DNA of 64,000 nt, taken from the IMG/VR virus record IMGVR_UViG_3300028833_000068, positions 64,001 to 128,000 of that record. One strand, 5' to 3'. How positions within the stretch are numbered: position 1 is the first letter of the stretch; every line of letters starts with the position of its first letter. The stretch is from a virus. Lineage: Duplodnaviria > Caudoviricetes. The translations under genes were made by a program, and so were the position numbers. Below are positions 11,118 through 64,000 of the stretch, piece by piece. The notes beneath the pieces are model-generated. The model did no database searches. It saw nothing but the letters and a program-made list of their open reading frames with translations, and was not told the DNA's origin.

Positions 11118-12428
11118 ATGAAAATCAAAATAACTGAATCACAATATGATAACCTTGTATTGGTTGAAACTGAAAATGCTGCTTTTAAAAGAAGTAATGC
11201 TAAGGATGCCAATCTAAAGCGAATTTGGAAAGTGATTGACATGAAACAAAAACAACTTTATAAAGAGGTCTTTGGTGAATTGTCAGAAAAAATGTATGAC
11301 ATTACAGTTGCCAAAGAAAAAAGAATGAAGGGAGTAAAACCAAAAGGAGATTTCTTAAAGATACCAAATAATATGTTCTCAGCTGGAAATGATAAACTTC
11401 CAGCTAGTGTACTAATTGTGAACATGTCTTCCGCTTTAATGTGCCCATCATACTACCTTGGTGTTTGCCAAATCACAAATGGCGCTTGTTATGCAATGAG
11501 AGATGAAAACCAATACTCAAGAGTAGATGTTGGTTCTGTACTTCGAAACAATTGGCAACGTGACCTTATGCATACCCAAATGCTACAACAATATCAACAT
11601 GGCAATAAAAAACCAATGAGAACATTTTTCAAAATTCTAGAAACATATATACAATTGGGAAATGCATATGCTGAAAACTTATATAAGATAGAATTAGAAA
11701 AGATGGAATACAAATATGGAAGAGAATTAACCCAAGAAGAAAAAAATCTATTAAGAGTTCAACAATCTGATAGTAAAATTACCGATATTAGATTGAATGA
11801 AAGCGGTGATTTCCATTGCCAACTAGCAGTAGACCTATGGGCTAAATTCGCTAGAAAAATTAAAAAGAAATATGGCATTAATACCCATGCTTATACAGCT
11901 AGAAATCTTGATTATTCAAAAGCATCACAAGATATGTCCATTAACTATTCACATCAAGGGGATGGAAATGCAAGAGGTGGCTTACCAAGAAGATTTAAAG
12001 CTGTTAGTGATGCAGAGTTTAATTCACTAGAAGGTGGTAATGAGGTTAAAAACCAACAGCCAATACTAGGACAAAAACCTAATGGCGAATTCTTCTATAA
12101 ATGCCCTTGCAGTAATAAAGAAACTAAATGCGATAGATGTGGCGTTTGTTTTGCCCCAAATAAGACTGGAACACCATACACCATTTATGTTAAATATCAT
12201 GGTGCTGTAGCTGCAAATGGACTCAAAAACTTATTTACAGCCAAGGAAATTAATAGTGTAATGAATGCACTAAAGACAAATGGATGGGTTACAGATAAAG
12301 AAATGAAATCTAGAAATAGAAAAGACAACGTTAAAAAACTTAACGACTACTCAGAAAAAATATTGGCACAAAGAAATGGAAAAGCACCAAAAGATGAATT
12401 TAATACTGAAAAAGTTGGAAAAGAATAA
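11118..12428 (+). CDS. Gp88-like Cys-rich (Fe-S/radical-SAM-related) protein with N-terminal ITES leader
   Basis: GNDKL, CPS..C..CYA, IRLNESGDF, AYT, CPC..CDRCGVC; N-term MKIKITESQYDNLVLVE. Confidence 0.7.
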   Translation: MKIKITESQYDNLVLVETENAAFKRSNAKDANLKRIWKVIDMKQKQLYKEVFGELSEKMYDITVAKEKRMKGVKPKGDFLKIPNNMFSAGNDKLPASVLIVNMSSALMCPSYYLGVCQITNGACYAMRDENQYSRVDVGSVLRNNWQRDLMHTQMLQQYQHGNKKPMRTFFKILETYIQLGNAYAENLYKIELEKMEYKYGRELTQEEKNLLRVQQSDSKITDIRLNESGDFHCQLAVDLWAKFARKIKKKYGINTHAYTARNLDYSKASQDMSINYSHQGDGNARGGLPRRFKAVSDAEFNSLEGGNEVKNQQPILGQKPNGEFFYKCPCSNKETKCDRCGVCFAPNKTGTPYTIYVKYHGAVAANGLKNLFTAKEINSVMNALKTNGWVTDKEMKSRNRKDNVKKLNDYSEKILAQRNGKAPKDEFNTEKVGKE

Positions 12429-12455
12429 AAGGCTAAGAAACAAAACTTAGCCTTT
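12428..12455. terminator. Bidirectional intrinsic terminator
   Basis: aaaggctaag...cttagccttt between convergent genes. Confidence 0.75.
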
Positions 12456-12460
12456 CTTAT

Positions 12461-12958
12461 TTATTCTAACAACTTCTTATCATCATATTTGTCAAATATC
12501 TTCTGAATCATATCCATAGTTCCAAGAGTTGCCTTCATAATCATCTCATGAATCTTCATTACCTCATTCAACTTGGTCTTGTTGGACTTCCTCTTACCAA
12601 ATAATGAATCCTTATATTCAGACACAATCGCCTCATATGCTCTCTTCCATTCAGGATGTAGTTCAAAAATTGGTAGACAATACTTCATGAACTCAGCAAT
12701 CTCATCAGTCTTCTTCTTGCGATGCTTCTTAGGCCAATAATCAAGAATAATGTCAAAATCATAATCCAACATGATTTGGCTCTTATCATTTTCATCCAAT
12801 TGATTCATCACTTGTTCCTCAATTGACGTTGGGGGTAAGTCAATACCATGCCACTTCTGAGCTGGAATTACCTCAAACTCATTCTCAATCGTAATATTTC
12901 TAGTAACAATTCTACGGTCACTAGTAATTGCCTTAAATGTTATTATTGTTTTATTCAT
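12461..12958 (-). CDS. Hypothetical protein
   Basis: 165-aa ORF. Confidence 0.7.
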   Translation of the reverse strand: MNKTIITFKAITSDRRIVTRNITIENEFEVIPAQKWHGIDLPPTSIEEQVMNQLDENDKSQIMLDYDFDIILDYWPKKHRKKKTDEIAEFMKYCLPIFELHPEWKRAYEAIVSEYKDSLFGKRKSNKTKLNEVMKIHEMIMKATLGTMDMIQKIFDKYDDKKLLE

Positions 12959-12962
12959 ATTT

Positions 12963-13193
12963 TTATCTGTACGTTGGTTTATATTCCCACCTATCTATCA
13001 CTTTGTTATACTTGTTATACACCTCCACGTTGAAGCATTTAACTTTTATCAAGTTCTCCTTAGAAATTCTTTCGGAAATATAGTTATTGACCTTATCGAT
13101 GATGTTGTCTTTGCAGCCAATAATCGTTTTGGTAAGAACTGTCTTACGAGACCAACTAGGTTTAACTAATGCTTCTCTTATAATCGCTTTCAT
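12963..13193 (-). CDS. Hypothetical protein (start likely MKAIIRE)
   Basis: ATG at 13193 lies just downstream of the promoter at 13210. Confidence 0.6.
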   Translation of the reverse strand: MKAIIREALVKPSWSRKTVLTKTIIGCKDNIIDKVNNYISERISKENLIKVKCFNVEVYNKYNKVIDRWEYKPTYR

Positions 13194-13209
13194 ATTTATT
13201 CTTTTTTTT

Positions 13210-13256
13210 TGCAAATGTACGAAAAAAAATTGGAGTGACAAAATATCTACTCCAAT
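13210..13256 (-). promoter_or_regulatory. Hairpin-promoter module
   Basis: attggagt...actccaat inverted repeat, T-tract, then TACATTTGCA on minus strand. Confidence 0.7.
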
Positions 13257-13268
13257 CTTTAATATATT

Positions 13269-13373
13269 TTAACGAATATACTCTATTAGTCTATCTATAT
13301 CATTAAAATATAAATCATCATCTTTCATGAACTTATTATATTTTTCATCTAAAAAATATATGAGTTTTGCCAT
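13269..13373 (-). CDS. Small protein (34 aa)
   Basis: Manual translation MAKLIYFLDEKYNKFMKDDDLYFNDIDRLIEYIR; start is immediately after TATCTTTGCA (13376-13385). Confidence 0.4.
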   Translation of the reverse strand: MAKLIYFLDEKYNKFMKDDDLYFNDIDRLIEYIR

Positions 13374-13432
13374 AATGCAAAGATATAAAAAAAATCTGAG
13401 AATTCCAAATAAATCCCCAGATTTTTATTCTT

Positions 13433-14584
13433 TTATCTTATATACATTCCCAAAGGTTTCTTCTTCAACACTTCCATAAGCTGATTATTGAGTTCAGCTT
13501 GATTCTTCATGAGATTCCACGGGAGCATTTCATCCAACCTCTCCTTCAACTCATTTAATACAGTCTCCTTCTCAGCCTTCCCTTGTTCAAGCAACATGTT
13601 GTAGTCCATTTGAGCTTCAGCTTCGGGAATCTTAATTTGTCCCGAAAAAGTCCCTCGGATTATACCTAATAGAATCTTCGCTTCTGCCACAAGCAAACGT
13701 CTAATAATCTGTTGAGTTGGGTTGTTCATCAACTCGTACCTCATCTTGTCCAACGGCACTTGGTCTGGCGTTATAATTACATCATCCTTGTTCTCAATCC
13801 TACAAAGGTCAGCATCTTCTGCACTTCCACTAACATCATAGTAGGTATACCAACAAATGCAATTGTGGTACTTACGCCACCCCCATGTGTCATCAGCAGC
13901 AACACCACCAATCATGTTTGGTGAACCTGGAACGGACATGAGGTGAATCAAGTGTGTACCATCTGGACCAGCTGTAACCTTATAAGCTAAGTCACCCCTT
14001 AGCATGGAGTTCTTATACTTCAAGTCTGCTGCCATTAAAGCCGTGTCATAGACATTGCCCACATAGAAGCCTGTCAAACCACCCATGTAGGATAGATTGC
14101 CAAGTTGTCCAAAACCACCACCAATACCAGTATCAAGTGTACCCAAGTTACCGTATAAAGCAGCCTTGGTTGTTGATGGCGTGATATATAAAACCTTATT
14201 GATTTCACGTCCAGCTGGAACAACGTACACTTGTTTGCCTTTTTCAATTCTGAAGAAATCTTTTTTAAGTTCATAGTTACCACGTTGCTGTAAACCTACC
14301 TCTCTACTGAACCAATAACTGTAATCCCTACTCCAATCCATTGTACGCACGGTCATTGCATAAGCAAGTTCATTTGCGTTTTGGAATTGGAATGTGTTCT
14401 TGCTTTGGATATTAAGCCATTGAGTTTTTAGCACCCAATTCTGTACCTTTTCTGAGTAATCGCCTATTGCTACGTCCAAGAGGTCACAAAGTTGCTCGTC
14501 CTCAAGTTGAACCTTACGCACTGGACTTCCCAAAAGTGTCCTCGTTAATTTAAATAAGTCTTTTATTTCTTGACTAAGTACCAT
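13433..14584 (-). CDS. Neck protein (T4 gp13-like)
   Basis: N-term LLGSPVRKVQLEDEQL..AI, C-term AEAKILLG.IRG.F..I; architecture resembles gp13. Confidence 0.7.
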   Translation of the reverse strand: MVLSQEIKDLFKLTRTLLGSPVRKVQLEDEQLCDLLDVAIGDYSEKVQNWVLKTQWLNIQSKNTFQFQNANELAYAMTVRTMDWSRDYSYWFSREVGLQQRGNYELKKDFFRIEKGKQVYVVPAGREINKVLYITPSTTKAALYGNLGTLDTGIGGGFGQLGNLSYMGGLTGFYVGNVYDTALMAADLKYKNSMLRGDLAYKVTAGPDGTHLIHLMSVPGSPNMIGGVAADDTWGWRKYHNCICWYTYYDVSGSAEDADLCRIENKDDVIITPDQVPLDKMRYELMNNPTQQIIRRLLVAEAKILLGIIRGTFSGQIKIPEAEAQMDYNMLLEQGKAEKETVLNELKERLDEMLPWNLMKNQAELNNQLMEVLKKKPLGMYIR

Positions 14585-15515
14585 ATTTATTTATTTCATT
14601 TATTAAATCATTATTATTACTATAAATAGTATCTAAATAATGATTTGGTATTTCTTTTTCTTTAGAAAAATAAAATAATTTTATCCCATTATTTTTACAT
14701 TTTTCAAATTTTTCTTTATCTTTTTTAACAGTATATTCATATTTCTTATTTCCACCAAAATATTTGACGGGTTTAAAATGTTGTATTCCTTGGTATTCGA
14801 TTCCAACTTTTTTAGATGGTATATAAATATCAATACTTTGTCCTTTAAGCCAATCTGTTTTGTATTGACAAATAACTTCTTCACCATAATATTTCTTTAA
14901 TATGTCAAATAACAGCATTTCATTAATATTATGTTCCTCATGACATTTAGGGCAACCAACACCAGTCATGTGAGAATGTGGTGACTGCCAGAATTCTCCA
15001 TGCTCTGGACATATAATACAAACCTTATCATCAGTCCCTTTACATTCTACCTTTGAGTAATCATATTTATTATTATGTACCTTTTTTGACCTTTTTATAA
15101 AAATTTCGTTAGTTAATTTAGCCACTCTAGAACACATTTGACATCCTTGACCTCTTAAATGCTTTTCTGGAGTTTTCTCAAATTCTCCATGTATCGAGCA
15201 TATTATTATCACTGGAGTCTTTTCATTAACATATTTAACTTTTGAATAATCATACTTATCGCCATGAACTTTTTTAGCTCGCTCTATGAACTCTTCTGTA
15301 GTATAAGCGAAACTTCTGTGATTACAATATTTGCACCCTTGCTTTTGATTAATATGATTATTAAATGGCATTTCAAAAACATTTCCACAGTTTTTACAGA
15401 TTATTTTATTTTTAGCAAATAAACCTTCATTCTCCACCAATGAGTAGTCATACTTATTACCATGAACTTTTTTAGCTCGCTCTATCATTTCTAAAATTGT
15501 TAATCGTTTACTCAT
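14574..15515 (-). CDS. Free-standing endonuclease: DUF723-like Zn-finger repeats plus Vsr/PD-(D/E)xK-like domain
   Basis: Three HG.KYDYS..C..C repeats; DIYIPSKKVGIEYQGIQHF. Confidence 0.82.
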   Translation of the reverse strand: MSKRLTILEMIERAKKVHGNKYDYSLVENEGLFAKNKIICKNCGNVFEMPFNNHINQKQGCKYCNHRSFAYTTEEFIERAKKVHGDKYDYSKVKYVNEKTPVIIICSIHGEFEKTPEKHLRGQGCQMCSRVAKLTNEIFIKRSKKVHNNKYDYSKVECKGTDDKVCIICPEHGEFWQSPHSHMTGVGCPKCHEEHNINEMLLFDILKKYYGEEVICQYKTDWLKGQSIDIYIPSKKVGIEYQGIQHFKPVKYFGGNKKYEYTVKKDKEKFEKCKNNGIKLFYFSKEKEIPNHYLDTIYSNNNDLINEINKYGT

Positions 15516-15758
15516 AATATTTTCTTTTTATATATAAATATAAAGGTTTACTAAAAAGTGCGCCTAGTAAAGTGTAATTTATATAAAAAAAAACAGCAAC
15601 ATTTATTGCTGTTTTATATTACCTCGTTTATTTCATCTTCTGCGTTTCTCTGTATGAATCTTCTCATGCTACGCTTCCTATACTTGATAAGCAAATGTTG
15701 TCTATCAGTTTTACTAAACCTTCTGCCATCAGTAGTCCAATGTTCTGTGAGAGCATAT

Positions 15759-16154
15759 TTAACTCTTCTTCTCATTGCCATGTGTTTCATGCTGCTTTTT
15801 TCTTTCCTCCATTTTTTCCTTTATAAGTTTTCTTTGTAATCTGTCTGCGATTATTTCTGCATGACAGCATTTAGGTTTGCAGAAGCATTGAAGGTATATA
15901 TCCTCACCATTTTTATAGTGTTCATATATTTCATCAAATGCCTTTGTAAGCTCTGTATTTTTGCCGTAGGCTGCGTCAAAATACTTCTCGTAGGCTTCTA
16001 CTGCCTCGTCCCTAGTTTTGAACGTGAGGGTCTTAAAAACGCTTTTAACACCATTATGAGAAAACGGATTACCTAATGGGCTAGGTCTAGCAACATAGAA
16101 ATTGTTAGGTTCTGATGTATGGTCTTCGTTATGACTATTATAAACGTATATCAT
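15759..16154 (-). CDS. DUF4326-like protein
   Basis: YVARPSPLGNPF, LQCFCKPKCCHAEII. Confidence 0.82.
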   Translation of the reverse strand: MIYVYNSHNEDHTSEPNNFYVARPSPLGNPFSHNGVKSVFKTLTFKTRDEAVEAYEKYFDAAYGKNTELTKAFDEIYEHYKNGEDIYLQCFCKPKCCHAEIIADRLQRKLIKEKMEERKKQHETHGNEKKS

Positions 16155-16600
16155 ACTTCTATATCCTTTAGTTTATAGTCTACTATTTCTCCATTATAGA
16201 TTCTCTTACCACTATTTTCAATATACTTTTTGAGGAAATCATGCCATAATCTAACATAGGTATCAACGTATACTATATCGTTAGTATATTTACCCCAAGG
16301 ATTCAATCTAACTTCCCTATTACGATAATCCCCATTATAACGTTTAAATGTTACTAACCCACTTTCTATGTGTTTTAAGAGATTACCCATAAATCCATCA
16401 AGGGTTCTGCCTCTTCCCTTACTAAGGAAATCTTCAACGAATGTATTACTACCTTTTGGAAAATTGGTTCTACGTATTCTTCCTTGATTTCTCCAATATG
16501 ACCCAGCGTATTCGCCCTTAAGGATTCTGTGAAAGTAGATATGCCCATCAAGCGATAGTTCTCTTTTCAAGAACATATAAAATACTTGTGTTGCTGTCAT
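16151..16600 (-). CDS. Hypothetical protein
   Basis: 149-aa ORF, ATGA overlap with next gene. Confidence 0.7.
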   Translation of the reverse strand: MTATQVFYMFLKRELSLDGHIYFHRILKGEYAGSYWRNQGRIRRTNFPKGSNTFVEDFLSKGRGRTLDGFMGNLLKHIESGLVTFKRYNGDYRNREVRLNPWGKYTNDIVYVDTYVRLWHDFLKKYIENSGKRIYNGEIVDYKLKDIEV

Positions 16601-16603
16601 AGT

Positions 16604-16807: not shown

Positions 16808-16861
16808 AATCTTTGTATTTTTTTTGCAAAGATATGTAAAAAAAATGAAATTAACAAATTT

Positions 16862-17138: not shown

Positions 17139-17345
17139 TTAATCCCACCCCCATATTTCATGGGACATAGGAAATCGCATCGACATCCTCTCTAGAGATT
17201 CATCCTTAAACCATTTCTTCTGCCTAAAGTACCACTTGAACTTCTTATGGGACTTACTCATCACGTGAGCATGATAGAACTTAACCTTCTTCCCCAATTT
17301 ATTCCAATACTTCTTTGGAGTATTTTGTTTATTTCCATTAGACAT
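17139..17345 (-). CDS. Small basic hypothetical protein
   Basis: 68 aa, K/W-rich, directly downstream of the tRNAs. Confidence 0.55.
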   Translation of the reverse strand: MSNGNKQNTPKKYWNKLGKKVKFYHAHVMSKSHKKFKWYFRQKKWFKDESLERMSMRFPMSHEIWGWD

Positions 17346-17361
17346 TCTTTATGATTTTTTG

Positions 17362-17432
17362 TAGCGATTGAGGTAGTCGAAACCCCACTTCCTGGGCCAA
17401 ATCCAGACGTGCGACCGCCACACCGAACCGCT
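17362..17432 (-). tRNA. Atypical tRNA-Gln(UUG)-like
   Basis: Acceptor AGCGGTT/AATCGCT, anticodon arm TCTGG-ATTTGGC-CCAGG, T arm GGGGT-TTCGACT-ACCTC; C8, A32 and T53 are non-canonical. Confidence 0.65.
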
Positions 17433-17475
17433 TGGTCTACAGATACTTACGTATTTGTTTCTCTAGTAAATTTTG

Positions 17476-17557
17476 TACCCTCGGAGAGACTCGGACTCTC
17501 AAGCCTTACGGCACTAGATCCTTGGTCTAGCGTGTCTGCCAATTCCACCACAAGGGC
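17476..17557 (-). tRNA. tRNA-Leu, anticodon AAG as folded (atypical)
   Basis: GCCCTTG TGGTGGAATTGGCAGACAC, arm CTAGA-CCAAGGA-TCTAG, long variable arm, T arm GAGAG-TCCGAGT-CTCTC. Confidence 0.8.
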
Positions 17558-17567
17558 AAATAGTTTG

Positions 17568-17654
17568 TAGCTCTGAATGGAGTCGAACCATCACAAGGCA
17601 AATGCCTTATACATTTTGAGTGTATTGCGTCTCAACCATTTGCGCCACAGAGCC
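17568..17654 (-). tRNA. tRNA-Leu(CAA)
   Basis: Acceptor GGCTCTG/CAGAGCT, ATACA-CTCAAAA-TGTAT, variable arm AAGGC/GCCTT, GGTTCGACTCC. Confidence 0.9.
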
Positions 17655-17668
17655 ATATAATATATTTT

Positions 17669-17766
17669 TCCTACACGAAGAGGCTACCATATTGTCTGAC
17701 CAACGTCTCTTCTCCTTCAGCATTCCTTCGTCAGAAAGGTCATGCCATCCAATCCCTCCCTCGGAA
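17669..17766 (-). ncRNA. Candidate structured RNA at the head of the tRNA operon
   Basis: GC-rich non-coding stretch; ends pair (cgag[g]gagg/cctcttcg), inner stem tctgac/gtcaga. Confidence 0.35.
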
Positions 17767-17806
17767 AAAAAATTGCATTACAAACTAGTATTTACCCAAT
17801 TCGTAA

Positions 17807-17841
17807 TGCAAAGATATGAAAAAAAATTCAAATAACCAAAT
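17807..17841 (-). promoter_or_regulatory. Bacteroidota-type promoter driving the tRNA cluster
   Basis: TTTG...TATCTTTGCA. Confidence 0.7.
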
Positions 17842-17854
17842 TATTTAATAAGAA

Positions 17855-17986
17855 TTAACGAATTATTCGTTTTTCTGTTCTTCTAATAGTACCTCCAACG
17901 CTTCCGTTGTTAAGTGGGTTACTTGGTCTCTGTACTGCTTGTGTTGCAGCAGTATTGTTCTGTTTATTTTTACAACCGCATGCCAT
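17855..17986 (-). CDS. Small MACGCK protein (43 aa)
   Basis: Manual translation MACGCKNKQNNTAATQAVQRPSNP...RRTEKRIIR. Confidence 0.55.
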   Translation of the reverse strand: MACGCKNKQNNTAATQAVQRPSNPLNNGSVGGTIRRTEKRIIR

Positions 17987-18012
17987 AATATTTTTCTTAT
18001 TTAATAACGTTA

Positions 18013-18474
18013 TTATTCTTCTGTATAATAATAATCCTCTTCGCTTGGAATATCTAATGGATTATAATTAATTTCCATTATGCTTTCTAAAGCTTTCTTA
18101 ACAATTCCATTGTCATGTATTGGAATGCAGCGTCCATCATTGTTGCAGTATTCAATACTTCCAACTTCAATTGTTGGATTATCTATTATTTCATCTGGGT
18201 CATCTGGCACATCATAGCTGTTACTTCTCATACCTCTTTTCATGTATGGGTCTCCTATAACTTCAAATGTTATATTAGCAAATCTACCACCTTGCAATTC
18301 AATATCTGTATCATTTTCTCCAAGAATTACATCCAATCGTCCTTTTTTGGCTACAGATTGGGCGATAGATTGCAAGAGCAAGTTGTTATCTTGTTGTTCT
18401 TGCAGCACCATTGCAACACTACGTTGGACTAGATTGTGCAAATCTGACTCAGTTAATCTTATTATCTTCTTCAT
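18013..18474 (-). CDS. Leader-bearing (MKKIIRLTESDLH) acidic protein
   Basis: N-term leader ending VLQE; TATTTATT motif near 18500. Confidence 0.8.
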   Translation of the reverse strand: MKKIIRLTESDLHNLVQRSVAMVLQEQQDNNLLLQSIAQSVAKKGRLDVILGENDTDIELQGGRFANITFEVIGDPYMKRGMRSNSYDVPDDPDEIIDNPTIEVGSIEYCNNDGRCIPIHDNGIVKKALESIMEINYNPLDIPSEEDYYYTEE

Positions 18475-18527
18475 TGCCTATATTTATACTATTTCTCTAA
18501 TAAATATAACATCTTTTGAAAAAAGAA

Positions 18528-25464: not shown

Positions 25465-25819
25465 TGTTATTACTCCTTTCTAACGCTTCTTGTAGTGTAT
25501 TTATTAGCCAATTACTACTACTAACAAACGCTCCATCTAAAAATATTGTTACATACCAATATTCTAATGGCAAACCAATCATAATCATTGGTGTTAATAT
25601 TACACTTGGTAATATCCATAAATTAAGCGCTGACATTCCAAATCCTAACCACCACCCAGAACATATAAAACAAGAGAGCATTTCATCCAATTGTGGATGA
25701 ATCTTTTTAGCTATTTCGTGCATTTTAACAAAACAATGAAATGGACCATTTGCATAAATTATAGTATTTGCAATACCATAACAAACAATCATATAAATAA
25801 CTAATATTAACCAGTACAT
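25457..25819 (-). CDS. Membrane protein (DUF1360-like)
   Basis: Hydrophobic segments with LSCFICSGWW (CxxC). Confidence 0.7.
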   Translation of the reverse strand: MYWLILVIYMIVCYGIANTIIYANGPFHCFVKMHEIAKKIHPQLDEMLSCFICSGWWLGFGMSALNLWILPSVILTPMIMIGLPLEYWYVTIFLDGAFVSSSNWLINTLQEALERSNNNG

Positions 25820-26706
25820 ATTTCAATTAATTCATTTATCTTATTTTCTAACTTGTCATTATAATTTATATAAAACAAATTCACATTATTCTCAGTACAT
25901 AATTTCAATTTATTTCTATCTAAATTTTTTCTATGCTCAAACATTTTTTCTCCACCAAAAAATTCTATTGGCTCAAAATGCTGTATACCTTGACATTCTA
26001 TTGCTATATCATATTTTGGTAAATAAAAATCTAAGCTTTGTTTACCTAGCCATGATAAATTTTCCTTCTTACAATGCCATATGTATTTTAAATTATTCTT
26101 TTCCAATTCTCTAGCAACTTTTTCTTCCAAAATACTGTTTTGACAATGTGGACATCCAACACCTCTCATATGATGCATAGGATAAGTATAAAATTCTCCA
26201 TGTTTAGAACAAATAACGCATACCTTTGTTTTCTGATTTACATATACTGTTTTACTATAATCATATTTCTCACCATACAATTCTTTGCAAATTGAAATAA
26301 ATTCATCTGTCGTATAATTATGTGTCAAAGAACATTTTTTGCATCCATAACCTTTTAAATGATGTTGTGGAGTTTGCCAGAACTCACCATGAATAGGACA
26401 AATTATGCATACTTTAGTTTGATTATCCACATAATTTACATTAGAATAATCATATCTATTACCGTGAATTTCCTTTGCTTTATTTATAAATTCTTCTAGT
26501 GTATACTTAGTGCTCCTATGTGAACAATGCGGACAATTCTGACCATGCAAATGGTCTAAAGGACGTTGAAAAAAGCTTCCATGAATTTTACAAACAATTT
26601 CAACTGGTTTTTGAGTTGATTCATATATGACTTTCGAATAATCATATTTATCTCCATGTACATTTTTAGCTTGTTCAACAAACTCCTCAGTTGTCTTTCT
26701 TTTCAT
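25807..26706 (-). CDS. DUF723-repeat plus Vsr-like endonuclease
   Basis: Three KYDYS..CPxHG repeats; LDFYLPKYDIAIECQGIQHF. Confidence 0.82.
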   Translation of the reverse strand: MKRKTTEEFVEQAKNVHGDKYDYSKVIYESTQKPVEIVCKIHGSFFQRPLDHLHGQNCPHCSHRSTKYTLEEFINKAKEIHGNRYDYSNVNYVDNQTKVCIICPIHGEFWQTPQHHLKGYGCKKCSLTHNYTTDEFISICKELYGEKYDYSKTVYVNQKTKVCVICSKHGEFYTYPMHHMRGVGCPHCQNSILEEKVARELEKNNLKYIWHCKKENLSWLGKQSLDFYLPKYDIAIECQGIQHFEPIEFFGGEKMFEHRKNLDRNKLKLCTENNVNLFYINYNDKLENKINELIEICTG

Positions 26707-28952: not shown

Positions 28953-29774
28953 TTAATCCATTAACTTTCTAGCCTTTTTGACCATATCAGAGAACTCATT
29001 GTTTTCTTGGATTCTAAAACTAGCTGTTGATGTCTTTGCTTCAACACTCTTATAACCCCAAAGTTGCTTCATTCTCTCCTTCTGCTCATTAACCAAAGTC
29101 ATATTCACTTTCTTAGTTACCATTGGCTCTTTTTTATGCCATTCTACCAAGTATTGGTTATCTGAACTATCCTTCATAATAAATTTATTGCCTTCAGTCT
29201 TATACTCATCTGGTATTCTTGTCATCATATGTCCTTCAGAAAGGAACTGAGTATTCTTAAAGGTTAACATCTTGATTTTCTTTGACTCTCCCATTGTTTC
29301 TCTTTGTTTTTCTACTTCATTTTTATTTAATTCACGTCCTGTTAGACCAATTTCAACTGCTGCATCCTTGCCTTTCTTCACAGCTTCAGCATGGTCTTTT
29401 GCTGCATCATAAATCTTACCATCCTTATCAAAGTCTGCGTTTCCAAACTCATCATTCTTGTGCTTATCCTCAGCATCCTTTGAAACATATCCCTTCATCT
29501 GGGACTTAACTCTGTCCTTAAATGGCTTATTGATGTTGTCATACTCCAAGTCATGCATCCCCTTATTGTCAGTAGCATTAATTCCGCCACTAACCTTTTG
29601 GGTTTTGCTTGTCAAACCTCCATCGTACTTTTCAGTTTCTTTCTTGATGTCACTGTAGGCTTTCCTATTAATTTCTGCTGATTCCTTATTACCAAATTGA
29701 ACAGGTTTGAATTCATTCTTGGTCTCTTCGTTTAGAATCCTTCTTAATTCTCCTACGCTAATAGTTGTTATCAT
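28953..29774 (-). CDS. Leader-bearing hypothetical protein (probable head-associated)
   Basis: N-term ELRRILNEE, internal LVNEQKERMKQLWGY. Confidence 0.7.
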   Translation of the reverse strand: MITTISVGELRRILNEETKNEFKPVQFGNKESAEINRKAYSDIKKETEKYDGGLTSKTQKVSGGINATDNKGMHDLEYDNINKPFKDRVKSQMKGYVSKDAEDKHKNDEFGNADFDKDGKIYDAAKDHAEAVKKGKDAAVEIGLTGRELNKNEVEKQRETMGESKKIKMLTFKNTQFLSEGHMMTRIPDEYKTEGNKFIMKDSSDNQYLVEWHKKEPMVTKKVNMTLVNEQKERMKQLWGYKSVEAKTSTASFRIQENNEFSDMVKKARKLMD

Positions 29775-29937: not shown

Positions 29938-30264
29938 TTACTTCTGTCTATTCATTGAGATTGAACCACCTCTTTCTAAAGCTGGTTTCATATCAACTTG
30001 ATTTGTCTTTGCTTGGGTAACATCACCAAGATTATGCTTTTGCCTCATAATTGGTTCTTTCCAAGGGTTTCCTCCCACTCCTTTTTTTTTGTTCTTTCCA
30101 CTAAAAGCAGGATATGCAACACCACCAGATGAATCTGAATTACCAACCATAAGTCCAGCACTATTGGTAGCACCATCACCACCTTCTTCTTGTAATATCC
30201 TATTCACAGCTTCTGCAACAATCTGATGCAAATCGCTCTCTGTTAATCTTATAATCTTTTTCAT
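29938..30264 (-). CDS. Leader-bearing small protein
   Basis: MKKIIRLTESDLHQIVAEAVNRILQEE then low-complexity tail. Confidence 0.8.
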   Translation of the reverse strand: MKKIIRLTESDLHQIVAEAVNRILQEEGGDGATNSAGLMVGNSDSSGGVAYPAFSGKNKKKGVGGNPWKEPIMRQKHNLGDVTQAKTNQVDMKPALERGGSISMNRQK

Positions 30265-30267
30265 AAT

Positions 30268-30621
30268 TTAAAATAAATTATTAATTACCGTACCAATTGC
30301 TTCCTCTTGGTCACAATCATTTTCACTCCAATATTTACATATTTGATTTATTAATTCATCTGCCTCATCACCTTGCAAGAAATAATCCTCACCTTGTTCA
30401 CCTTCTATTGATATATATGACATGCTTGTGTTTATCTCAACGTGATAATAACCATCACAAACATCAAATTTGCCATTCATATAAGAAGCATCACCATTAA
30501 GATATGGATTATAATCACTTGACAAATCCATTGGGTCGTTAAACTCCTTCAATATTCTTTTGACAGATTCATTAACAATATTACGTAAATCACTCTCCGT
30601 TAATCTTATAATTTTCTTCAT
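30268..30621 (-). CDS. Leader-bearing acidic protein
   Basis: MKKIIRLTESDLRNIVNESVKRILKE; TATTTATA at about 30643-30651. Confidence 0.8.
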   Translation of the reverse strand: MKKIIRLTESDLRNIVNESVKRILKEFNDPMDLSSDYNPYLNGDASYMNGKFDVCDGYYHVEINTSMSYISIEGEQGEDYFLQGDEADELINQICKYWSENDCDQEEAIGTVINNLF

Positions 30622-30720
30622 ATATCTAGACAGCTATTTACATATAAATATTCCATTTATGTTAAAATTGTTAAATCTCTTGGTTATTTATTGGAAATTT
30701 AGTATATTTACAAAAAAAAT

Positions 30721-31137
30721 ATGATAGCAGATTATAACACAATGCCAAGAATGTTTAGCGAATGTAATAAGAAATATTTCAATCGTGAACTTCCAATGCC
30801 AAAATTTGGTTTAATTAATAAAACTAGTATTTTGGCAAGATTTGAATTCTTCAAAGAAAAAGAAGGGGAGAAAATCAAACATAAAAAGATTTTGTTTTCT
30901 GATTGTTTTGACTTTGAAAATAGCGTTTTTGAGAATCTTATGGTACACGAGATGATTCACTATTATCTTGCTTGGAATGGAATTAAAAATCCTACAGAGC
31001 ATAATAAAGAATTTATGGATATTGCCAATAAATTAAATGCTGAATATGGTTTAAATATTACAAAAAAAGTAGATGCATCCTCATTCAAAAAGACTGAAAA
31101 TGCACCTAAAAGTATATTTAAAATCCTATTTGGGTAA
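30721..31137 (+). CDS. SprT-like zinc metalloprotease
   Basis: NKKYF..ELP, MVHEMIHY, EHNKEF. Confidence 0.85.
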   Translation: MIADYNTMPRMFSECNKKYFNRELPMPKFGLINKTSILARFEFFKEKEGEKIKHKKILFSDCFDFENSVFENLMVHEMIHYYLAWNGIKNPTEHNKEFMDIANKLNAEYGLNITKKVDASSFKKTENAPKSIFKILFG

Positions 31138-31138
31138 A

Positions 31139-31651
31139 TTAAGCACCAACTGTTTGATTTTTCCAAGCATTAAAGTTTGCGCTAGAACGTCCACCAGCAC
31201 TATTAAGTTGATTAATACAACTTTGAACTGCTTTAATTGTTGTTGCGCCAGCTACTCCAGGAGTTCTTTGTGCTTGTTGTAAGAAATTATTTAATGCTTT
31301 AATCGCATTGTTTTTTGCTGACTGAATATTTGTATTTGCTGCTCCAGCCTTAACTGTATTACCAACATTATAGGCTGTTTGTCTTGCAGTATCATATGCT
31401 TGACCAACCTTGTTCGCAGCAGTGTTATAAGCATTACCAATTGCTTGTCCAGCTCTATTCATTGCACCACTAGCTGCATTCATGGCATTGCCACCAAATT
31501 TCTGCATACCACGTCCAGCCATTTGTCCTAATGCTTGAGCACCTCCCTTAAAAGAATCCCAAAAGCCTTCTTGAATCATATAGTTTCTAACAGCATCCTC
31601 AACAAGGAAATGAAGGTCTTGTTCTGTTAATTGAATTTGTTTATTATTCAT
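31139..31651 (-). CDS. Leader-bearing Ala/Gly/Gln-rich helical protein
   Basis: IQLTEQDLHFLVEDAVRNYMIQE-GFWDSFK. Confidence 0.75.
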   Translation of the reverse strand: MNNKQIQLTEQDLHFLVEDAVRNYMIQEGFWDSFKGGAQALGQMAGRGMQKFGGNAMNAASGAMNRAGQAIGNAYNTAANKVGQAYDTARQTAYNVGNTVKAGAANTNIQSAKNNAIKALNNFLQQAQRTPGVAGATTIKAVQSCINQLNSAGGRSSANFNAWKNQTVGA

Positions 31652-31918: not shown

Positions 31919-32302
31919 TTAAATTGAATTATATAATTTTCTTATTCTTTCCTTTAATGGGTTATTCATCCTCTTTGGGTTCTTAATTGCTGCCTTAACG
32001 TCATCAGCCCATCCATATTTCACATAATAACGAGATTGCTGATTCCCAGTTGTCTCATCATATGGCTCATCAATCCTCTCTTCCTTTGTTATTACTGAAA
32101 GGTCATATAAACGCTTTCTAAGCTCTCCATTATGCAATCCCATAGATTTTAACCTATCATTGGGAACTGCGCCTATAGGGTCTTTAAAAATGTTCTTAAT
32201 GAATTCTATGACATCTTCATAGAAATCTTGGAATGGAGGTTTTCTATTATCTTCCTCAAGCAATCTCCCATATGCTGACTCATTGATGTGTATTACCTTC
32301 AT
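31919..32302 (-). CDS. Leader-bearing hypothetical protein
   Basis: MKVIHINESAYGRLLEE. Confidence 0.7.
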   Translation of the reverse strand: MKVIHINESAYGRLLEEDNRKPPFQDFYEDVIEFIKNIFKDPIGAVPNDRLKSMGLHNGELRKRLYDLSVITKEERIDEPYDETTGNQQSRYYVKYGWADDVKAAIKNPKRMNNPLKERIRKLYNSI

Positions 32303-33852: not shown

Positions 33853-34623
33853 TTAATATTTATTCTGTGAGGCTTTCTTTATCAATTCTTCAATATCCGT
33901 ATAAACTGTATATGGAAAATCTACATTAACATTAGAATAATGAAGTAACGTTACTCCATGTTCTTCGCAAAGTTTGATTTTCAATTCATCATTATTCTTC
34001 TGTAACTCAAAATGTTCCTTTCCGCCAAAATATTCAATTGGTTTAAAATGTTGCAAACCTTGACATTCTATAGCAACATTGTACTTAGGTAAATAGAAAT
34101 CAAATCTTTTAATTTTTTTCCCATCAACTAACCAATCAAAAACCTTTTGTTGTTCATATTCAATACCATTATTAATTAAAGCTTGTTCAACATTTCTCTC
34201 TAACTTAGATATTTTACAGTATGGACATCCTTGTTTGTGAGTTAAATGGTTATGTGGTGTCATTTCAAACTCCCTACCACATTCATTACATTTAATTACT
34301 AACTTAGTTTCTTTGTTTTTGTATACACTTTTAGAATAATCAAATTGCTCTCCGTGTAATGCTTTTGCTCTACTAGTAAAAACCTCTGTCGTTATTTTTT
34401 CTCTATTTGAACATACTCGGCATCCTCTTCCTAATAAGTGTTTTTCTGGAGTTTGCCAAAACTCACCGTGAATTGGGCATATTATGCAAACTTTTGTTCT
34501 AGCATTAACGTACTCAACTTTTGAATAATCATACTTGTCACCATGAATTTTCCTAGCACGTTCGATAAATTCATCCTTTGTAAAAGCAAACTTTTCCCTT
34601 AATATCTCATATTGTTTTTTCAT
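33853..34623 (-). CDS. DUF723-repeat plus Vsr-like endonuclease
   Basis: Two Zn repeats; FDFYLPKYNVAIECQGLQHF. Confidence 0.82.
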   Translation of the reverse strand: MKKQYEILREKFAFTKDEFIERARKIHGDKYDYSKVEYVNARTKVCIICPIHGEFWQTPEKHLLGRGCRVCSNREKITTEVFTSRAKALHGEQFDYSKSVYKNKETKLVIKCNECGREFEMTPHNHLTHKQGCPYCKISKLERNVEQALINNGIEYEQQKVFDWLVDGKKIKRFDFYLPKYNVAIECQGLQHFKPIEYFGGKEHFELQKNNDELKIKLCEEHGVTLLHYSNVNVDFPYTVYTDIEELIKKASQNKY

Positions 34624-44591: not shown

Positions 44592-45476
44592 TTAACTATT
44601 CGCCCAATTATTATTATCATTAGGGTCAATACCTTGACGAAGAAGGAACTTTCCAGTTACAATCTTATATTGTTTTGGGTCAAGGTCATAATCAATCAAG
44701 TCCCTTGTGAAATAGTCATACTTAAATTGTCTCAATTCATCAGAATCATATTCAGAATAATCCCAACCATTTACAATCTTATTGGTTGCCTTGTTAACAG
44801 CAAAGTGAGAATAACCTTGATTGTTTTGGAATGATTCTTCAGTTAAAGGCTTGTTATTATGCTTACTCTCAATATCTAACATTGCCTCATACCATTCACG
44901 AGTCTTTCCAGGATATTTCTTTCTGATTGCAATATTTCTACGCTCCCAATCAGCATTCGTCATTTTCTCTCTTTGTGTATAATAATCATCCATATATGCC
45001 TTGTCATCTAATTGGTCTGGAGAAAATGTCCATTCCTTCAAACACTTTTTAACTGACTTTCCAATCATTTGTTGGAGTTGACTTTCAGTTAATCTTATAA
45101 CTCTATTTTTCATCTTTATATTTCTTGATTCCTTTTTAACATATTTGCCATCTCTGTATTCAAGATTACCCTCATGCCAATCTTGAACATCGTTTGCTTG
45201 CCTATCAAGTCTTTTTAACTCTCCATTAGTATATGAGAAAGGCATCTTGGTTTTACCCAACATTCTATCCATTTCGTGACTATCCTTCCTCTGTTTAACC
45301 TTATCAACGCCAAACTGTTTATCACAAGTATCTATTGCATGGTCTCTGAAAGCTTCTGCTTGATTCTTTCTTCTTTCAGCTTCATATGTTGTTATATCTG
45401 GGCTGTTTGATAACTGCTTTGCTTTCGTTGCAGCAGCATCATAAGTCTTCCAATCCATTTCGTTCATATTAGCCAT
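44592..45476 (-). CDS. Multi-module protein with an internal IRLTES leader
   Basis: Start likely MANMNE; internal MKNRVIRLTESQLQQMIGKSVKKCLKE at 45113. Confidence 0.7.
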   Translation of the reverse strand: MANMNEMDWKTYDAAATKAKQLSNSPDITTYEAERRKNQAEAFRDHAIDTCDKQFGVDKVKQRKDSHEMDRMLGKTKMPFSYTNGELKRLDRQANDVQDWHEGNLEYRDGKYVKKESRNIKMKNRVIRLTESQLQQMIGKSVKKCLKEWTFSPDQLDDKAYMDDYYTQREKMTNADWERRNIAIRKKYPGKTREWYEAMLDIESKHNNKPLTEESFQNNQGYSHFAVNKATNKIVNGWDYSEYDSDELRQFKYDYFTRDLIDYDLDPKQYKIVTGKFLLRQGIDPNDNNNWANS

Positions 45477-45480
45477 GTTC

Positions 45481-45750
45481 TTACCAATTTTTAATCCACT
45501 CAGCCTTCTGAAGTCCTTCATCTAGAGTGTCATTATCTGTACGATATAACTCTGCTGCTTTTGTTCCATCAGCATCATCAATATTGCTCTGAGCATTGTA
45601 ATCCTTGTCACCAAAGACACTACTTACCTTTGTAAGGTCATAGTAAGCACCAACAGCATAATGACCATTAGCACCATATACTACTGAATCTTCATCCAAT
45701 TTAGCTGCCATAGCCTTTAGGATGTCACTATCTTTAAATTTCTTTGTCAT
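45481..45750 (-). CDS. Hypothetical protein
   Basis: 89 aa; TATTTATA at about 45767-45775. Confidence 0.65.
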   Translation of the reverse strand: MTKKFKDSDILKAMAAKLDEDSVVYGANGHYAVGAYYDLTKVSSVFGDKDYNAQSNIDDADGTKAAELYRTDNDTLDEGLQKAEWIKNW

Positions 45751-58905: not shown

Positions 58906-58943
58906 AAAAGAGCAACCATTATTGATTACTCTTTTTTCTATTG

Positions 58944-59600
58944 TTATTCCCATCCTTTTCCTTTGGTATACTTAGATTTTCCACTATAATAATCATGCAT
59001 ATCATTTGCCATTGAGATTTTTATTTTATCATGAAACAATTTATTGTTACTTATTTTATTTATTAAGAAATTTAATATTTTTTGGTTTATTTTTGAATCA
59101 TCTAAATTTGGAAATTTATTCACAAACTTATCATAAAGTTCATACTCTTCATCAAAATCACGGTCACTAGACCAAGAACGCTCATTGTTTGATAATTTAA
59201 TCTCAATCCTTTTTAAATACTTATGCAAAGGATATATATCCAAGTTATACAATCTTTCTTCTGCTTCACCTTTTCCATCAAAAGCAAAAGGCTGTAATCT
59301 TGCACCACGCAAATTCTGAATCATATCGCCATCAAACACGAAACAAACTGAACTTCCTTTACTTTGTATGTTATAATTTTTATCTCTTGTAAATGAAATA
59401 CATGGTTTGCTAGATATATCTTCTTCACTAGAAGGGACATTAGCTCTCAAACAATCATCATCAACAATCCAAGATGCTTGTATAAGGCTAGTATAATGAT
59501 ATAGTTCTCCATGATAGTTTTCATTTATATTTTGTCTTAAATAACTATCTATCGTTTCCCTAATAATCGATTTAACTCTATTTTGATTTATTCTTCTCAT
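58944..59600 (-). CDS. Leader-bearing ADP-ribosyltransferase-fold-like protein
   Basis: SIIRETIDSYLRQNINE, then LYHYT...ISFTRD...EAEER. Confidence 0.55.
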   Translation of the reverse strand: MRRINQNRVKSIIRETIDSYLRQNINENYHGELYHYTSLIQASWIVDDDCLRANVPSSEEDISSKPCISFTRDKNYNIQSKGSSVCFVFDGDMIQNLRGARLQPFAFDGKGEAEERLYNLDIYPLHKYLKRIEIKLSNNERSWSSDRDFDEEYELYDKFVNKFPNLDDSKINQKILNFLINKISNNKLFHDKIKISMANDMHDYYSGKSKYTKGKGWE

Positions 59601-61563: not shown

Positions 61564-61588
61564 TATATAATGTAATTAATTCTCTTTA

Positions 61589-61600
61589 ATAAATATTTAT
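61589..61600. promoter_or_regulatory. Palindromic bidirectional TATTTAT motif between divergent genes
   Basis: ATAAATATTTAT is a perfect palindrome about 21-25 nt from both start codons. Confidence 0.55.
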
Positions 61601-61621
61601 ATGAAATAAAAGAAGATACTT

Positions 61622-61870
61622 ATGAAAGTAATTAATTTAAATGAATCTCAGTTTGGAAGATTGTTTGAAGGTGTAACTGACGCAGACTTTGGAACAAGTT
61701 CAGTTCCAGAATTTGATAGTAAAGACCAAGTTGAACTTCAACCAACAATTACAGATAAAGGTGGTAGTCCTAAAAAGGCTAATCCAATAGACAGCAATGA
61801 GTTTGCTGATGAAATGTGCCCACAAGGATGGGGATTCATTGGCGGTAAAAATGCTTCAAGACCAGTTTAA
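61622..61870 (+). CDS. Leader-bearing small protein
   Basis: MKVINLNESQFGRLFE. Confidence 0.7.
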   Translation: MKVINLNESQFGRLFEGVTDADFGTSSVPEFDSKDQVELQPTITDKGGSPKKANPIDSNEFADEMCPQGWGFIGGKNASRPV

Positions 61871-61873
61871 ACT

Positions 61874-62392
61874 ATGTCATTAATAATAGAAGATTCACAG
61901 AAAGTGACACAAAGGAAAATTCCAGTTCCTAAGAATGCTCAACAAGTTTTTAGTGCATTATATAATGCGCTAGAACCAACTATGGGTAAAAATAACCTCA
62001 AGAACCTTAAAAACCTTGCAACTGATAAGACTTATAATAAAAAAGGTGAGGAAACAAAGAAAAATGGTAAAGAACAAGGTGTTAACTATGTGAATATTGA
62101 TGTTGCAAAAATGAGAAAAAGCAGATGGCCAAATGACCCATTACAACAAATGGCACAAGGTGGACAACTTGCTTATGATTTATATGACAAGGGCATTGAA
62201 AAGGCAAGAAGACAAGAAGAAATTCCTCCAGTAGAGCCACCAAAGCCTACAAGCGATGCTGACGTTAAACCAAGCGATGTGAAGGTAAAACAAATAGAAC
62301 TTCCTAGCGGAACTATCTCATATAATGAGAATAAAGAGATTGGTAAAAAAATATACATAACTGAAAAACAAGTTATTAAATTGAAAAAATGA
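61874..62392 (+). CDS. Hypothetical protein with leader-like motif at the C-terminus
   Basis: Ends KKIYITEKQVIKLKK. Confidence 0.7.
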   Translation: MSLIIEDSQKVTQRKIPVPKNAQQVFSALYNALEPTMGKNNLKNLKNLATDKTYNKKGEETKKNGKEQGVNYVNIDVAKMRKSRWPNDPLQQMAQGGQLAYDLYDKGIEKARRQEEIPPVEPPKPTSDADVKPSDVKVKQIELPSGTISYNENKEIGKKIYITEKQVIKLKK

Positions 62393-62643
62393 ATACAGTC
62401 GAAAATACATATAATAAAATAGGTAATACCATTGATTATATATTTGGTGGAGGAACTAAAGAACAAGGCGGAAACCTCGCAAGCGCAGATGGAAAACCAA
62501 CAACACTAGAAATGTATGGAATGAAAGCAAGACAATACCATTTAATGAGAAATGAATGGAAAAAAGACTTGCAATATACAAAACCATTAATAGAATCAGA
62601 ATATATGGTTCAAACTGAATTTAAAATAAACGGTGGAAAATAA
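62389..62643 (+). CDS. Hypothetical protein
   Basis: ATGA overlap with upstream gene. Confidence 0.6.
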   Translation: MNTVENTYNKIGNTIDYIFGGGTKEQGGNLASADGKPTTLEMYGMKARQYHLMRNEWKKDLQYTKPLIESEYMVQTEFKINGGK

Positions 62644-62695
62644 TAAAAGAACTATTTATAATAGAATAATAAAATATTAAATTTTATATAAGATT

Positions 62696-63115
62696 ATGGG
62701 AAAACAGACATGTTTAGAGAAAGCAGGAATCAATGAACGTCATAACGAAATTGTACGTTCAGATTATAATATCGAAGACCAGTATTCAAGTGCTCATAAA
62801 GATGCTATTTCTGACGATGAAGCTCAAGGCAAAGGACATCCTACTATAAAAGGTCACACACACTGGCTACCAAACTGTAATGGAACTGCAAGTAATATGA
62901 TTAAATATGACAACTTTGCAACAAGCCCAAGTGACCAGATAGGCGGTTTATATGACCGTAAGGGCAGAGCTGGAATTCCTGGACGTGAGGAACAAATGGC
63001 ACGTTCAATTTACAATTATGAAGAGTCTTATGGCCCTACTTCAGTTGATACCACAGCCAATGTGAATGACGGTCAGTACTTCGTGGGTCAGCAGATTGGC
63101 CAAGAAAACGCTTAA
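62696..63115 (+). CDS. Hypothetical protein
   Basis: 139 aa; TATTTATA at 62653-62660. Confidence 0.7.
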   Translation: MGKQTCLEKAGINERHNEIVRSDYNIEDQYSSAHKDAISDDEAQGKGHPTIKGHTHWLPNCNGTASNMIKYDNFATSPSDQIGGLYDRKGRAGIPGREEQMARSIYNYEESYGPTSVDTTANVNDGQYFVGQQIGQENA

Positions 63116-63254
63116 AAAATTTGGAATTCTCCAGATTTTCTATATCTTTGCATAAATCTTTTATATTATACAAACTACAAAAATATTGAAGAAGACAATA
63201 TAAAAACTTTTAAAGATAAAGAGAAATTAATAAAAAGTATAATTACATAATGTT

Positions 63255-63536
63255 ATGGGATTTTACGACAGCAATAGATTAGCAAATTTGGCAAGAAACA
63301 TACTATTTGGTATGGATGTTGTCAGTAAAAGATGTGACAAAATTTATGAGTCTGCAAAAGATAAGAAGCTTGAAGATGTTAATTTTGACATGAGTGAAGA
63401 GGCGAAGAGAAGGGCAATTAATGAAAATAAGAGGTTCTTCTCAGACCAAAATGTTCAAAGAAGATTAAAGCTACTTCAAGATATTATAGTTGATGATACA
63501 CACCTTAATAAATTAAGAGCATTATACGGACAATAA
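63255..63536 (+). CDS. Hypothetical protein
   Basis: 93 aa; host-type promoter at 63143-63152. Confidence 0.65.
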   Translation: MGFYDSNRLANLARNILFGMDVVSKRCDKIYESAKDKKLEDVNFDMSEEAKRRAINENKRFFSDQNVQRRLKLLQDIIVDDTHLNKLRALYGQ

Positions 63537-63538
63537 TA

Positions 63539-64000
63539 ATGAAGAAAATACTTTTACGAGATAGAATAAAACCTTTCTTGAACGAAGAAATCGATAGTGA
63601 TAGCGTATTACAATCGATTCGCAATAAGAATAAAGTTAGGATACGCTATGATGATGGTATGGAGGACAATGGCGGTAACTCCAAGGGTAGCCGTGTCATC
63701 ATGCCTATGGCTATTGGTACAACTAAGAAAGGGTATCCAGTAGTAAGAGCATGGCAAGAAGGTGGTGGCTCTCGTAGAGGTATACCAAAGTGGAAATTCT
63801 TCAGATTAGATCGTATTACATCTTGGCAACCATTAAGGAATAAAAAGTTCTTCCAAGCCCCAGATGGCTATAACCCAAATGGGGATAAAACAATGGGAAC
63901 ATTTGTTGATAATGCAAAGTTTAATGATTTTATTAGCCCATTAGAGAGGGAGAAAATGCGTTATCAAAATGATGTTAAGTTTGGCCAGCAAAAGAACAAC
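63539..64000 (+). CDS. WYL-like domain protein (partial, runs off the window)
   Basis: Manual translation MKKILLRDRIKPFLNEE...VRIRY...RVIMPMAIG...VRAWQ...WKFFRLDRITSW. Confidence 0.75.
   Translation, partial: MKKILLRDRIKPFLNEEIDSDSVLQSIRNKNKVRIRYDDGMEDNGGNSKGSRVIMPMAIGTTKKGYPVVRAWQEGGGSRRGIPKWKFFRLDRITSWQPLRNKKFFQAPDGYNPNGDKTMGTFVDNAKFNDFISPLEREKMRYQNDVKFGQQKNN

Follow-up and report, generated by a model that had tools for sequence, protein, structure and literature searches.

A conserved, portable peptide module on orphan proteins of rumen Prevotella jumbo phages as a candidate prohead-targeting propeptide

A 64,000-nucleotide stretch of viral DNA, referred to here as the window, encodes four small proteins that begin with nearly the same peptide leader and continue into unrelated bodies. 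The window comprises bases 64,001-128,000 of a linear, 171,411-bp IMG/VR virus contig (record IMGVR_UViG_3300028833_000068; 33% GC), which is 53% complete according to CheckV. The shared peptide is a module of about 25 residues (25-26), which is abundant and strongly conserved and is not described in the literature that we found. We propose, at a probability of roughly 0.6, that it serves T4-like jumbo phages of rumen Prevotella as a portable propeptide for prohead targeting, one that is cut by an S77 (gp21-type) protease and represents a long form of the capsid targeting sequence of phage T4. The support for such a capsid-targeting and processing tag, namely an N-terminal bias, an I/L-x-E end, linkage to the protease gene, a promoter-like box in common with head genes and relatives of T4 type, is circumstantial, and docking, cutting, retention in the head and ejection are steps that we infer.

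The module and its occurrence on unrelated proteins

The module is composed of a short strand, a helix cap, an amphipathic helix and an end of the type hydrophobic-hydrophobic-x-Glu (I/V, then L/I, then x, then Glu). In a logo of 233 copies, it starts at two Lys before the strand and stops at the terminal Glu, which is kept in 86-93% of the copies, in agreement with the hydrophobic-x-Glu ending claimed in a preliminary description of the window; conservation ends right after this residue. Nearly every residue is conserved, the polar ones included, and three hydrophobic-x-Glu triplets (L-T-E, V-K-E and I-L-x-E) lie 8-9 residues apart, with Leu, Ile or Val at P3 of all three candidate cut sites. 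A profile made from nine clear copies and run over all six frames of the 171-kb contig returned exactly 10 strong copies (15-52 bits), the next best match scoring at most 6 bits. Five of these copies are N-terminal, four of them in the window (Table 1) and one at contig position 133,056. As the preliminary description had stated, the translations from 18474, 30264 and 30621 (minus strand) have identical first 12 residues followed by a similar helix, and the leader at 31651 is a clear variant (E 0.003 with a hidden Markov model within the contig). The family of leaders that it recognised is thus borne out by the four N-terminal window copies, but it overlooked an internal copy in the window.

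A search of 1.84 billion representative proteins with the profile found 6,971 clusters at a threshold of E<=1e-3, of which 736 pass E<=1e-10. Proteins that bear the module two or three times are over-represented at the top of the list, as the scores of their copies sum. When loci were sampled with less bias, 83% of the viral copies (150 of 181) were N-terminal, 146 of them with a Met at a fixed place. IMG/VR holds at least 164 confirmed module loci, mostly from rumen metagenomes, with complete genomes of 295-413 kb among them, and each complete relative carries 9-31 copies. The window is syntenic with two complete relatives, G001 and G002 (protein identity 43-98%), and the genes for the 153- and 108-residue leader proteins lie within the synteny. 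No family match was found for the module or the bodies in Pfam, PHROGs, NCBIfam and PADLOC, precomputed Pfam assignments for 120 longer carriers gave nothing, and a full-text search of the literature for the motif found no relevant paper.

Selection acts on the peptide, since across 182 distinct DNA copies (from the contig and related loci) the peptide is fixed and synonymous codons vary freely (e.g. TCA, AGT, TCT and AGC for Ser, that is, both TCN and AGY, and TTA, CTA, CTT and TTG for Leu, both TTR and CTN), and since full-length orthologs of the 153-residue protein, found in G001, G002 and others, have the first nine residues without change where their overall identity is down to 35%. No part of these orthologs is more conserved than the leader.

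Bodies, in turn, are exchanged behind the leader. As claimed earlier, the bodies are unrelated and share no mutual similarity in blastp comparisons. At the place syntenic to the 170-residue gene (31139-31651), G001 and G002 keep the same leader variant and the alignment is limited to the first 28 residues, and for the 117-residue gene (30268-30621) only the leader has matches in these two genomes, the body being without a match there; the neighbouring 108-residue gene has orthologs at the syntenic place (59% identity in G002 and 43% in G001). For the 153-residue family, the AlphaFold2 prediction has an extended stretch up to residue 8 and a helix that begins at residue 9, with a predicted local distance difference test score of about 60 for the leader and about 90 for the body, so that in these models the leader behaves as a free N-terminal extension outside the body fold. 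The fold of the 153-residue body has no match in the PDB, and the ESM Atlas returned only unnamed viral clusters for it.

Several variations on the module are of note. In T4-like phages from outside the rumen (L180-L186, L176, L179, L182 and L191:19568-19879), the leader is one helical turn shorter (22 residues versus 26 in the rumen) and its first 12 residues are identical; the head clusters of these phages also contain other types of N-terminal leader. One subfamily (contig 149391-149765, equal to L006:5391-5765), which has many database matches, carries a second conserved motif, I-G-D-T-x-x-G-Q-x-x-L-G-R-L, directly after the final Glu of the leader, which is unexpected if all sequence behind the Glu were free cargo. 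A 607-residue protein (contig 139807-141630, equal to L005:13807-15630) contains two modules, both internal, and its N-terminus weakly matches a Dps-like PHROG (E 0.004); its homologs in G001 and G002 (650-662 residues) likewise have two modules.

Head genes, protease linkage and a shared promoter-like box

The carriers of the module appear to be T4-like jumbo phages of rumen Prevotella, a clade that we call T4-like from the head genes of the syntenic relatives of the window's phage, which encode a gp20-type portal, an S77 protease, an acidic scaffold and a gp23-type capsid protein. In G001, the head cluster consists of a leader gene, the gene for a T4-type large terminase, the portal gene (PF07230, E 1e-87), two unknown genes, two leader genes, the protease gene (PF03420, E 4e-24), the gene for a scaffold-like, acidic protein of 497 residues and the capsid gene (E 5e-29 for the protein against gp23 in the PDB). 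The two leader genes between portal and protease encode proteins of 110 and 132 residues and lie on mixed strands. The order of G001 recurs in an annotated T4-like coliphage, in which the portal gene is followed by genes for two small prohead core proteins and then by those for protease, scaffold and capsid protein, and because of this common gene order the two G001 leader genes can be said to occupy the slot of gp67 and gp68. In T4, these are prohead core proteins encoded between portal gene 20 and protease gene 21. The two conserved leader-bearing proteins of G001 resemble them in position, but have no sequence similarity to gp67 and gp68 of the annotated coliphage.

An S77 protease above the Pfam cut-off is encoded by 14 of 20 module-bearing viral contigs and by 11 of the 13 with a length of at least 180 kb, and 27 of the 75 best viral loci contain it within 10 kb of the module. 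Over four complete genomes, the 63 module copies include 17 that lie at most 10 kb from the protease gene, compared to 3.6 expected (pooled binomial P 5e-8, a value that overstates the case, the counts not being phylogenetically independent and some families being orthologous). The same is seen in other clades, with leader genes flanking the protease gene on both sides in G017 and one leader gene lying 9 kb away from it in G019. In G004, the S77 protease is encoded by an unusually long reading frame (L093:11939-13093; 384 residues versus about 232 in relatives), in which about 110 residues, starting with a Cys after a conserved Gly-Glu, split the Pfam match; the insert looks like an intein or a similar insertion. 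In G005 and G007, the matches to protease and capsid protein are only fragments, one with an in-frame stop, which suggests split or intron-interrupted head genes; fragmented marker genes have been reported for related gut jumbo phages (PMC12880540). An absence of the protease in G005 is not a valid conclusion, since its capsid gene is also fragmentary.

When the G001 capsid protein is aligned to mature T4 gp23, the predicted maturation site falls after residue 44, where a conserved I-K-E is followed by N-V-A, and at the corresponding place the capsid protein of the non-rumen clade reads L-K-E and then N-V-A. The predicted cut fits the Leu/Ile-x-Glu rule of T4. The idea that the N-termini of the scaffold and capsid proteins are themselves homologs of the module was not upheld, as the module profile does not score them. 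A rare pentapeptide from the middle of the module, h-[KR]-E-S-h, is also present in two head proteins of four relatives (L088:16892-18931 and L088:15328-16821; G002-G004), in the capsid propeptide at residue 21 and in the scaffold at residue 10. It was noticed post hoc. The contig's proteome of 53,921 residues has it 4 times, of which 3 are in modules, and the pentapeptide may be a preferred site of the protease or a shared core-binding motif.

Leader genes and head genes also have a TATTTAT box in common, which we infer to be a late promoter. It lies 24-50 nucleotides upstream of the genes for capsid protein, scaffold, protease, portal and terminase (G001 and G003), and in the contig it precedes 31 of 230 genes, including an endolysin-like gene and several homing-endonuclease genes, and four of nine module genes, or six of nine with operon mates counted (Fisher P 0.02 and 3e-4). 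The box at 30644-30650 probably serves both tandem leader genes, which start at 30621 and 30264.

Proposed function and rival explanations

In the proposed model, the tagged genes would be transcribed together with the head genes, and the leader, which starts with eight extended residues and continues with a Thr-Glu-Ser-Asp helix cap and roughly 17 residues of amphipathic helix, would dock the protein to the scaffolding core during prohead assembly. The S77 (gp21-type) protease would then cut after one or more of L-T-E, V-K-E and I-L-x-E and release the variable body inside the head. Proteins with internal copies would be two-part polyproteins that are loaded together and cut apart; a second conserved cut site, 'E-S', upstream of the internal copies is too weak to be called (Glu in 21% and Ser in 15% of them). 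The three cut-site-like triplets may provide redundancy, as in the propeptides of phiKZ (PMC9026906). Another possibility is that the actual counterpart of the 10-residue tag of T4 is the stretch of the first nine residues, with the helix as an added docking element.

The closest known system is that of T4, whose internal proteins IPI, IPII, IPIII and Alt carry a capsid targeting sequence (CTS) that is removed by the prohead protease gp21 (reviewed in PMC9026906) and was reportedly described by Mullaney and Black in 1996. Like the CTS, the module is an N-terminal peptide on otherwise unrelated, fast-evolving proteins that ends in hydrophobic-x-Glu, its first 9 residues (M-K-...-L-x-E) match the T4 tag in length and logic, and a gp21-type protease, a scaffold and a gp23-type capsid protein are present in its phage clade. 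Processing of the T4 tag by gp21 proceeds by cuts after Leu/Ile-x-Glu (PMC9026906, section 2.6). The module differs from the CTS in its long helix with three candidate cut sites, in that about one in nine copies is internal and many proteins have 2-3 copies, in the size of its repertoire, which at 9-31 copies per genome and about 7,000 clusters is much larger, and in its additional presence on IS1595 transposons in host chromosomes, and its function is a proposal made from sequence. In the giant phages phiKZ, 201phi2-1 and SPN3US, propeptides of head, inner-body and ejection proteins are cut by gp21-like proteases (PMC9026906, PMC5694885, PMC7411985). These systems also combine a jumbo phage, a gp21-related protease, cuts after Glu at several redundant sites and many processed head-internal proteins, but their P3 is a small residue (S/A/G) whereas that of the module is Leu or Ile as in T4, they do not use one portable, near-identical module, and the capsid and portal genes of the module's phages are of T4 type. 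Encapsulin cargo-loading peptides are likewise short, portable peptides that address diverse cargo to the inside of an HK97-fold shell; in contrast to the module, they are usually C-terminal, uncleaved, bind the shell protein directly and are unrelated in sequence.

A number of points weigh against a prohead-targeting propeptide. The module has 25-26 residues compared to 10 in the T4 tag, to which it has no sequence similarity. Half of the copies in the contig are internal, a status that depends on open frames upstream in simple longest-ORF (open reading frame) gene calls; apart from the one in the window, they lie in proteins of 251, 124 and 607 residues (two in the last) and make up four of the five copies outside the window. 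In the sample of viral loci, 20 of 181 copies (11%) have more than 60 open codons upstream, 14 of the 20 still keeping the Met, and these internal copies, together with proteins that have 2-3 copies, fit a simple N-terminal tag poorly. The bodies are of mixed charge, unlike the basic internal proteins of T4, and, although described earlier as diverse effectors, they are orphans, none of which is a recognised effector. Most window copies sit among replication genes rather than head genes. The gp21-like prohead protease invoked in the preliminary description is encoded by the syntenic relatives but not matched in the window's own contig, where searches for the T4 prohead protease (S77) and gp23 families gave 0 matches in 171 kb at 53% completeness; because of the synteny with G001 and G002, the head cluster is expected in the missing part, and the head machinery assigned to the window's phage is therefore that of its relatives, its own contig being about half a genome. 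The fragmentary head genes of G005 and G007 and the non-independence of the linkage counts belong here as well, as do a tblastn search of a phage collection with two carriers, which gave no real match in cultured phages, and the leader genes that travel as IS1595 passengers in chromosomes with no head genes nearby.

Among the rival explanations, the least unlikely, though still unlikely, is that the helix of the module serves for docking or zippering in a complex other than the capsid, where it would either bind a common hub protein of the phage or the host or bundle small proteins in the infected cell, with the few copies beside the protease gene being structural paralogs that have the helix by descent. 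The near-total conservation of residues, polar ones included, would suit a peptide that binds a specific partner, the module is often internal or repeated, most window copies are found among replication and nucleotide-metabolism genes, and copies exist in host chromosomes; on the other hand, no other gene co-occurs, the only recurrent neighbours being head protease, scaffold and capsid genes, the N-terminal bias and the fixed hydrophobic-x-Glu end better match a processed propeptide, and the promoter-like box is held in common with head genes. The leader is also long enough to be an enzyme recognition sequence, and could mark the protein for regulated proteolysis, for export or for a dedicated modifying enzyme, as do leaders of the type found in ribosomally synthesized and post-translationally modified peptides (RiPPs). 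We consider this improbable, as the recurrent neighbour of leader genes is the head protease and not a RiPP-type maturase, neither a modifying enzyme nor a transporter or adaptor recurs beside them across 75 viral and 30 bacterial loci, and the leader is too charged for a signal peptide.

The 30 bacterial loci come from a scan of prokaryotes with one genome per species and are nearly all from rumen Prevotella (among them the isolates Segatella bryantii DSM 11371, Prevotella sp. MA2016 and tf2-5). In 17 of them, a full or partial IS1595 transposase (PF12762, E 9e-43; PF12760) lies convergent to and just downstream of the leader gene, and copies of the element, chromosomal as well as in jumbo phages (L104:4716-7514, L116:5077-7508 and L094:6850-7806, the last in G004), agree in their left end, in the leader block (DNA identity of about 90%) and in the transposase, but differ in the passenger segments on both sides of the leader. 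The loci are surrounded by ordinary chromosome (GC 0.40-0.55) without phage genes nearby. These observations would be accounted for if the module worked in the host cell, apart from phage heads, as part of IS1595 transposon biology. This we regard as about as improbable as a RiPP-type or related tag: the window's contig has 10 module copies and no transposase, a full or sizeable partial transposase is present in only about 4 of 75 viral loci, and several chromosomal copies carry the TATTTAT box of the phage head-gene type, which suggests phage-type genes in transit. The same IS1595 elements also occur in bona fide jumbo phage genomes such as G004. A long shot that would join these observations to prohead targeting is that the leader acts as a capsid address label in trans, so that proteins encoded by the host or by IS1595 transposons in Prevotella chromosomes, whose tagged genes lie behind a head-gene-type box, would be loaded into jumbo phage heads on infection. 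Such loading could be a Trojan-horse defence or could benefit the transposon by letting it move back and forth between phage and host, with the leader doubling as a recombination handle that renews the cargo. That the conserved block acts chiefly at the DNA level, as a recombination handle by which gene cassettes are swapped, with the peptide as a by-product, is the least probable reading of all and, as a sole explanation, the only rival already largely excluded. It draws on the leader block of the IS1595 copies, which is nearly the same between unrelated flanks, on the different bodies behind the same leader at syntenic sites and on the 11-mer gttaatcttat, which, as noted in the preliminary description, is exact at four module sites in the window (18452, 30242, 30599 and 45088). 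With one mismatch allowed, however, the 11-mer is not enriched beyond chance and it is spelled with preferred AT-rich codons, and the wide synonymous variation behind a fixed peptide in the 182 copies largely rules out a DNA element as the sole explanation.

Further features of the window and wider meaning

Apart from the leader genes, the window contains mainly replication and nucleotide-metabolism genes (NrdD, DnaB, exonuclease and SbcC) and numerous small orphan genes, and a baseplate-wedge homolog lies directly upstream of it. The main features are listed in Table 1.

Table 1. Leader genes, promoter-like boxes and other features (window coordinates unless stated otherwise)
Feature	Position	Strand	Remarks
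Leader-tagged gene, 153 residues	18013-18474	-	Leader 18397-18474; orphan-fold body
TATTTAT promoter-like box	18500-18506	-	32 nucleotides upstream of the 18474 start
Leader-tagged gene, 108 residues	29938-30264	-	Leader 30187-30264; one codon downstream of the preceding leader gene
Leader-tagged gene, 117 residues	30268-30621	-	Leader 30544-30621
TATTTAT promoter-like box	30644-30650	-	29 nucleotides upstream of the 30621 start
Leader-tagged gene, 170 residues	31139-31651	-	Variant leader 31568-31651 with one extra helix residue; Gly/Ala/Asn-rich body
309-residue protein with internal module	44592-45521	-	Module 45033-45110 (residues 138-163); Met kept just before the module
Gene with second, shorter leader type	31919-32302	-	Leader 32252-32302; orthologs in G001 and G002; not detected by the main-module profile
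Gene with second, shorter leader type	61622-61870	+	Leader 61622-61672; TATTTAT box in front
GP88-like protein	11118-12428	+	Pfam GP88, E 1.9e-6; TATTTAT box upstream; module membership doubtful
Homing-endonuclease genes, HNH/GIY-type	14574-15515, 25807-26706, 33853-34623		
Homing-endonuclease genes, HNH/GIY-type	Contig 17234-18373, 30068-30997, 148227-149147		

A second, shorter type of leader, M-K-V-I-x-L-N-E-S...R-L-F-E, is present on at least four body families in related phages and, in the window, on the genes starting at 32302 and 61622. The preliminary description had listed these two as variants of the main leader, together with 11118; none of the three scores better than an E of about 1 with the main profile, and, while the former two do have leaders, of this second type, the first 10 residues of the protein from 11118 are only loosely like it and with a profile E of about 1 it is the top non-member. 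Five 'helix-only' forms, at 29774, 32511, 59600, 63539 and 2684, score at noise level (E of at least 14, or absent) and are treated as chance. As for the labels given to the bodies, Gp88-like holds for 11118-12428, ART-like was not confirmed for 58944-59600, and WYL falls just below the Pfam cut-off for the gene at 63539; the ART and WYL labels had come from the weaker 'leaders' that are not real members. The homing-endonuclease genes of the contig are many and paralogous, share an N-terminal motif and in several cases lie behind a TATTTAT box.

Should the targeting reading fail, an abundant and conserved peptide module would still need explaining. If it is true, one easily recognised peptide serves rumen and other T4-like jumbo phages to fill their heads from a huge, rapidly changing protein repertoire (about 7,000 clusters, almost none with an assigned function), and candidates for head-internal and ejected proteins could be listed from sequence in uncultured phages. 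The module would then also provide a ready tag for loading foreign proteins into the heads of Bacteroidota phages, and a test case for the exchange of cargo genes, including exchange via transposons common to phage and host.

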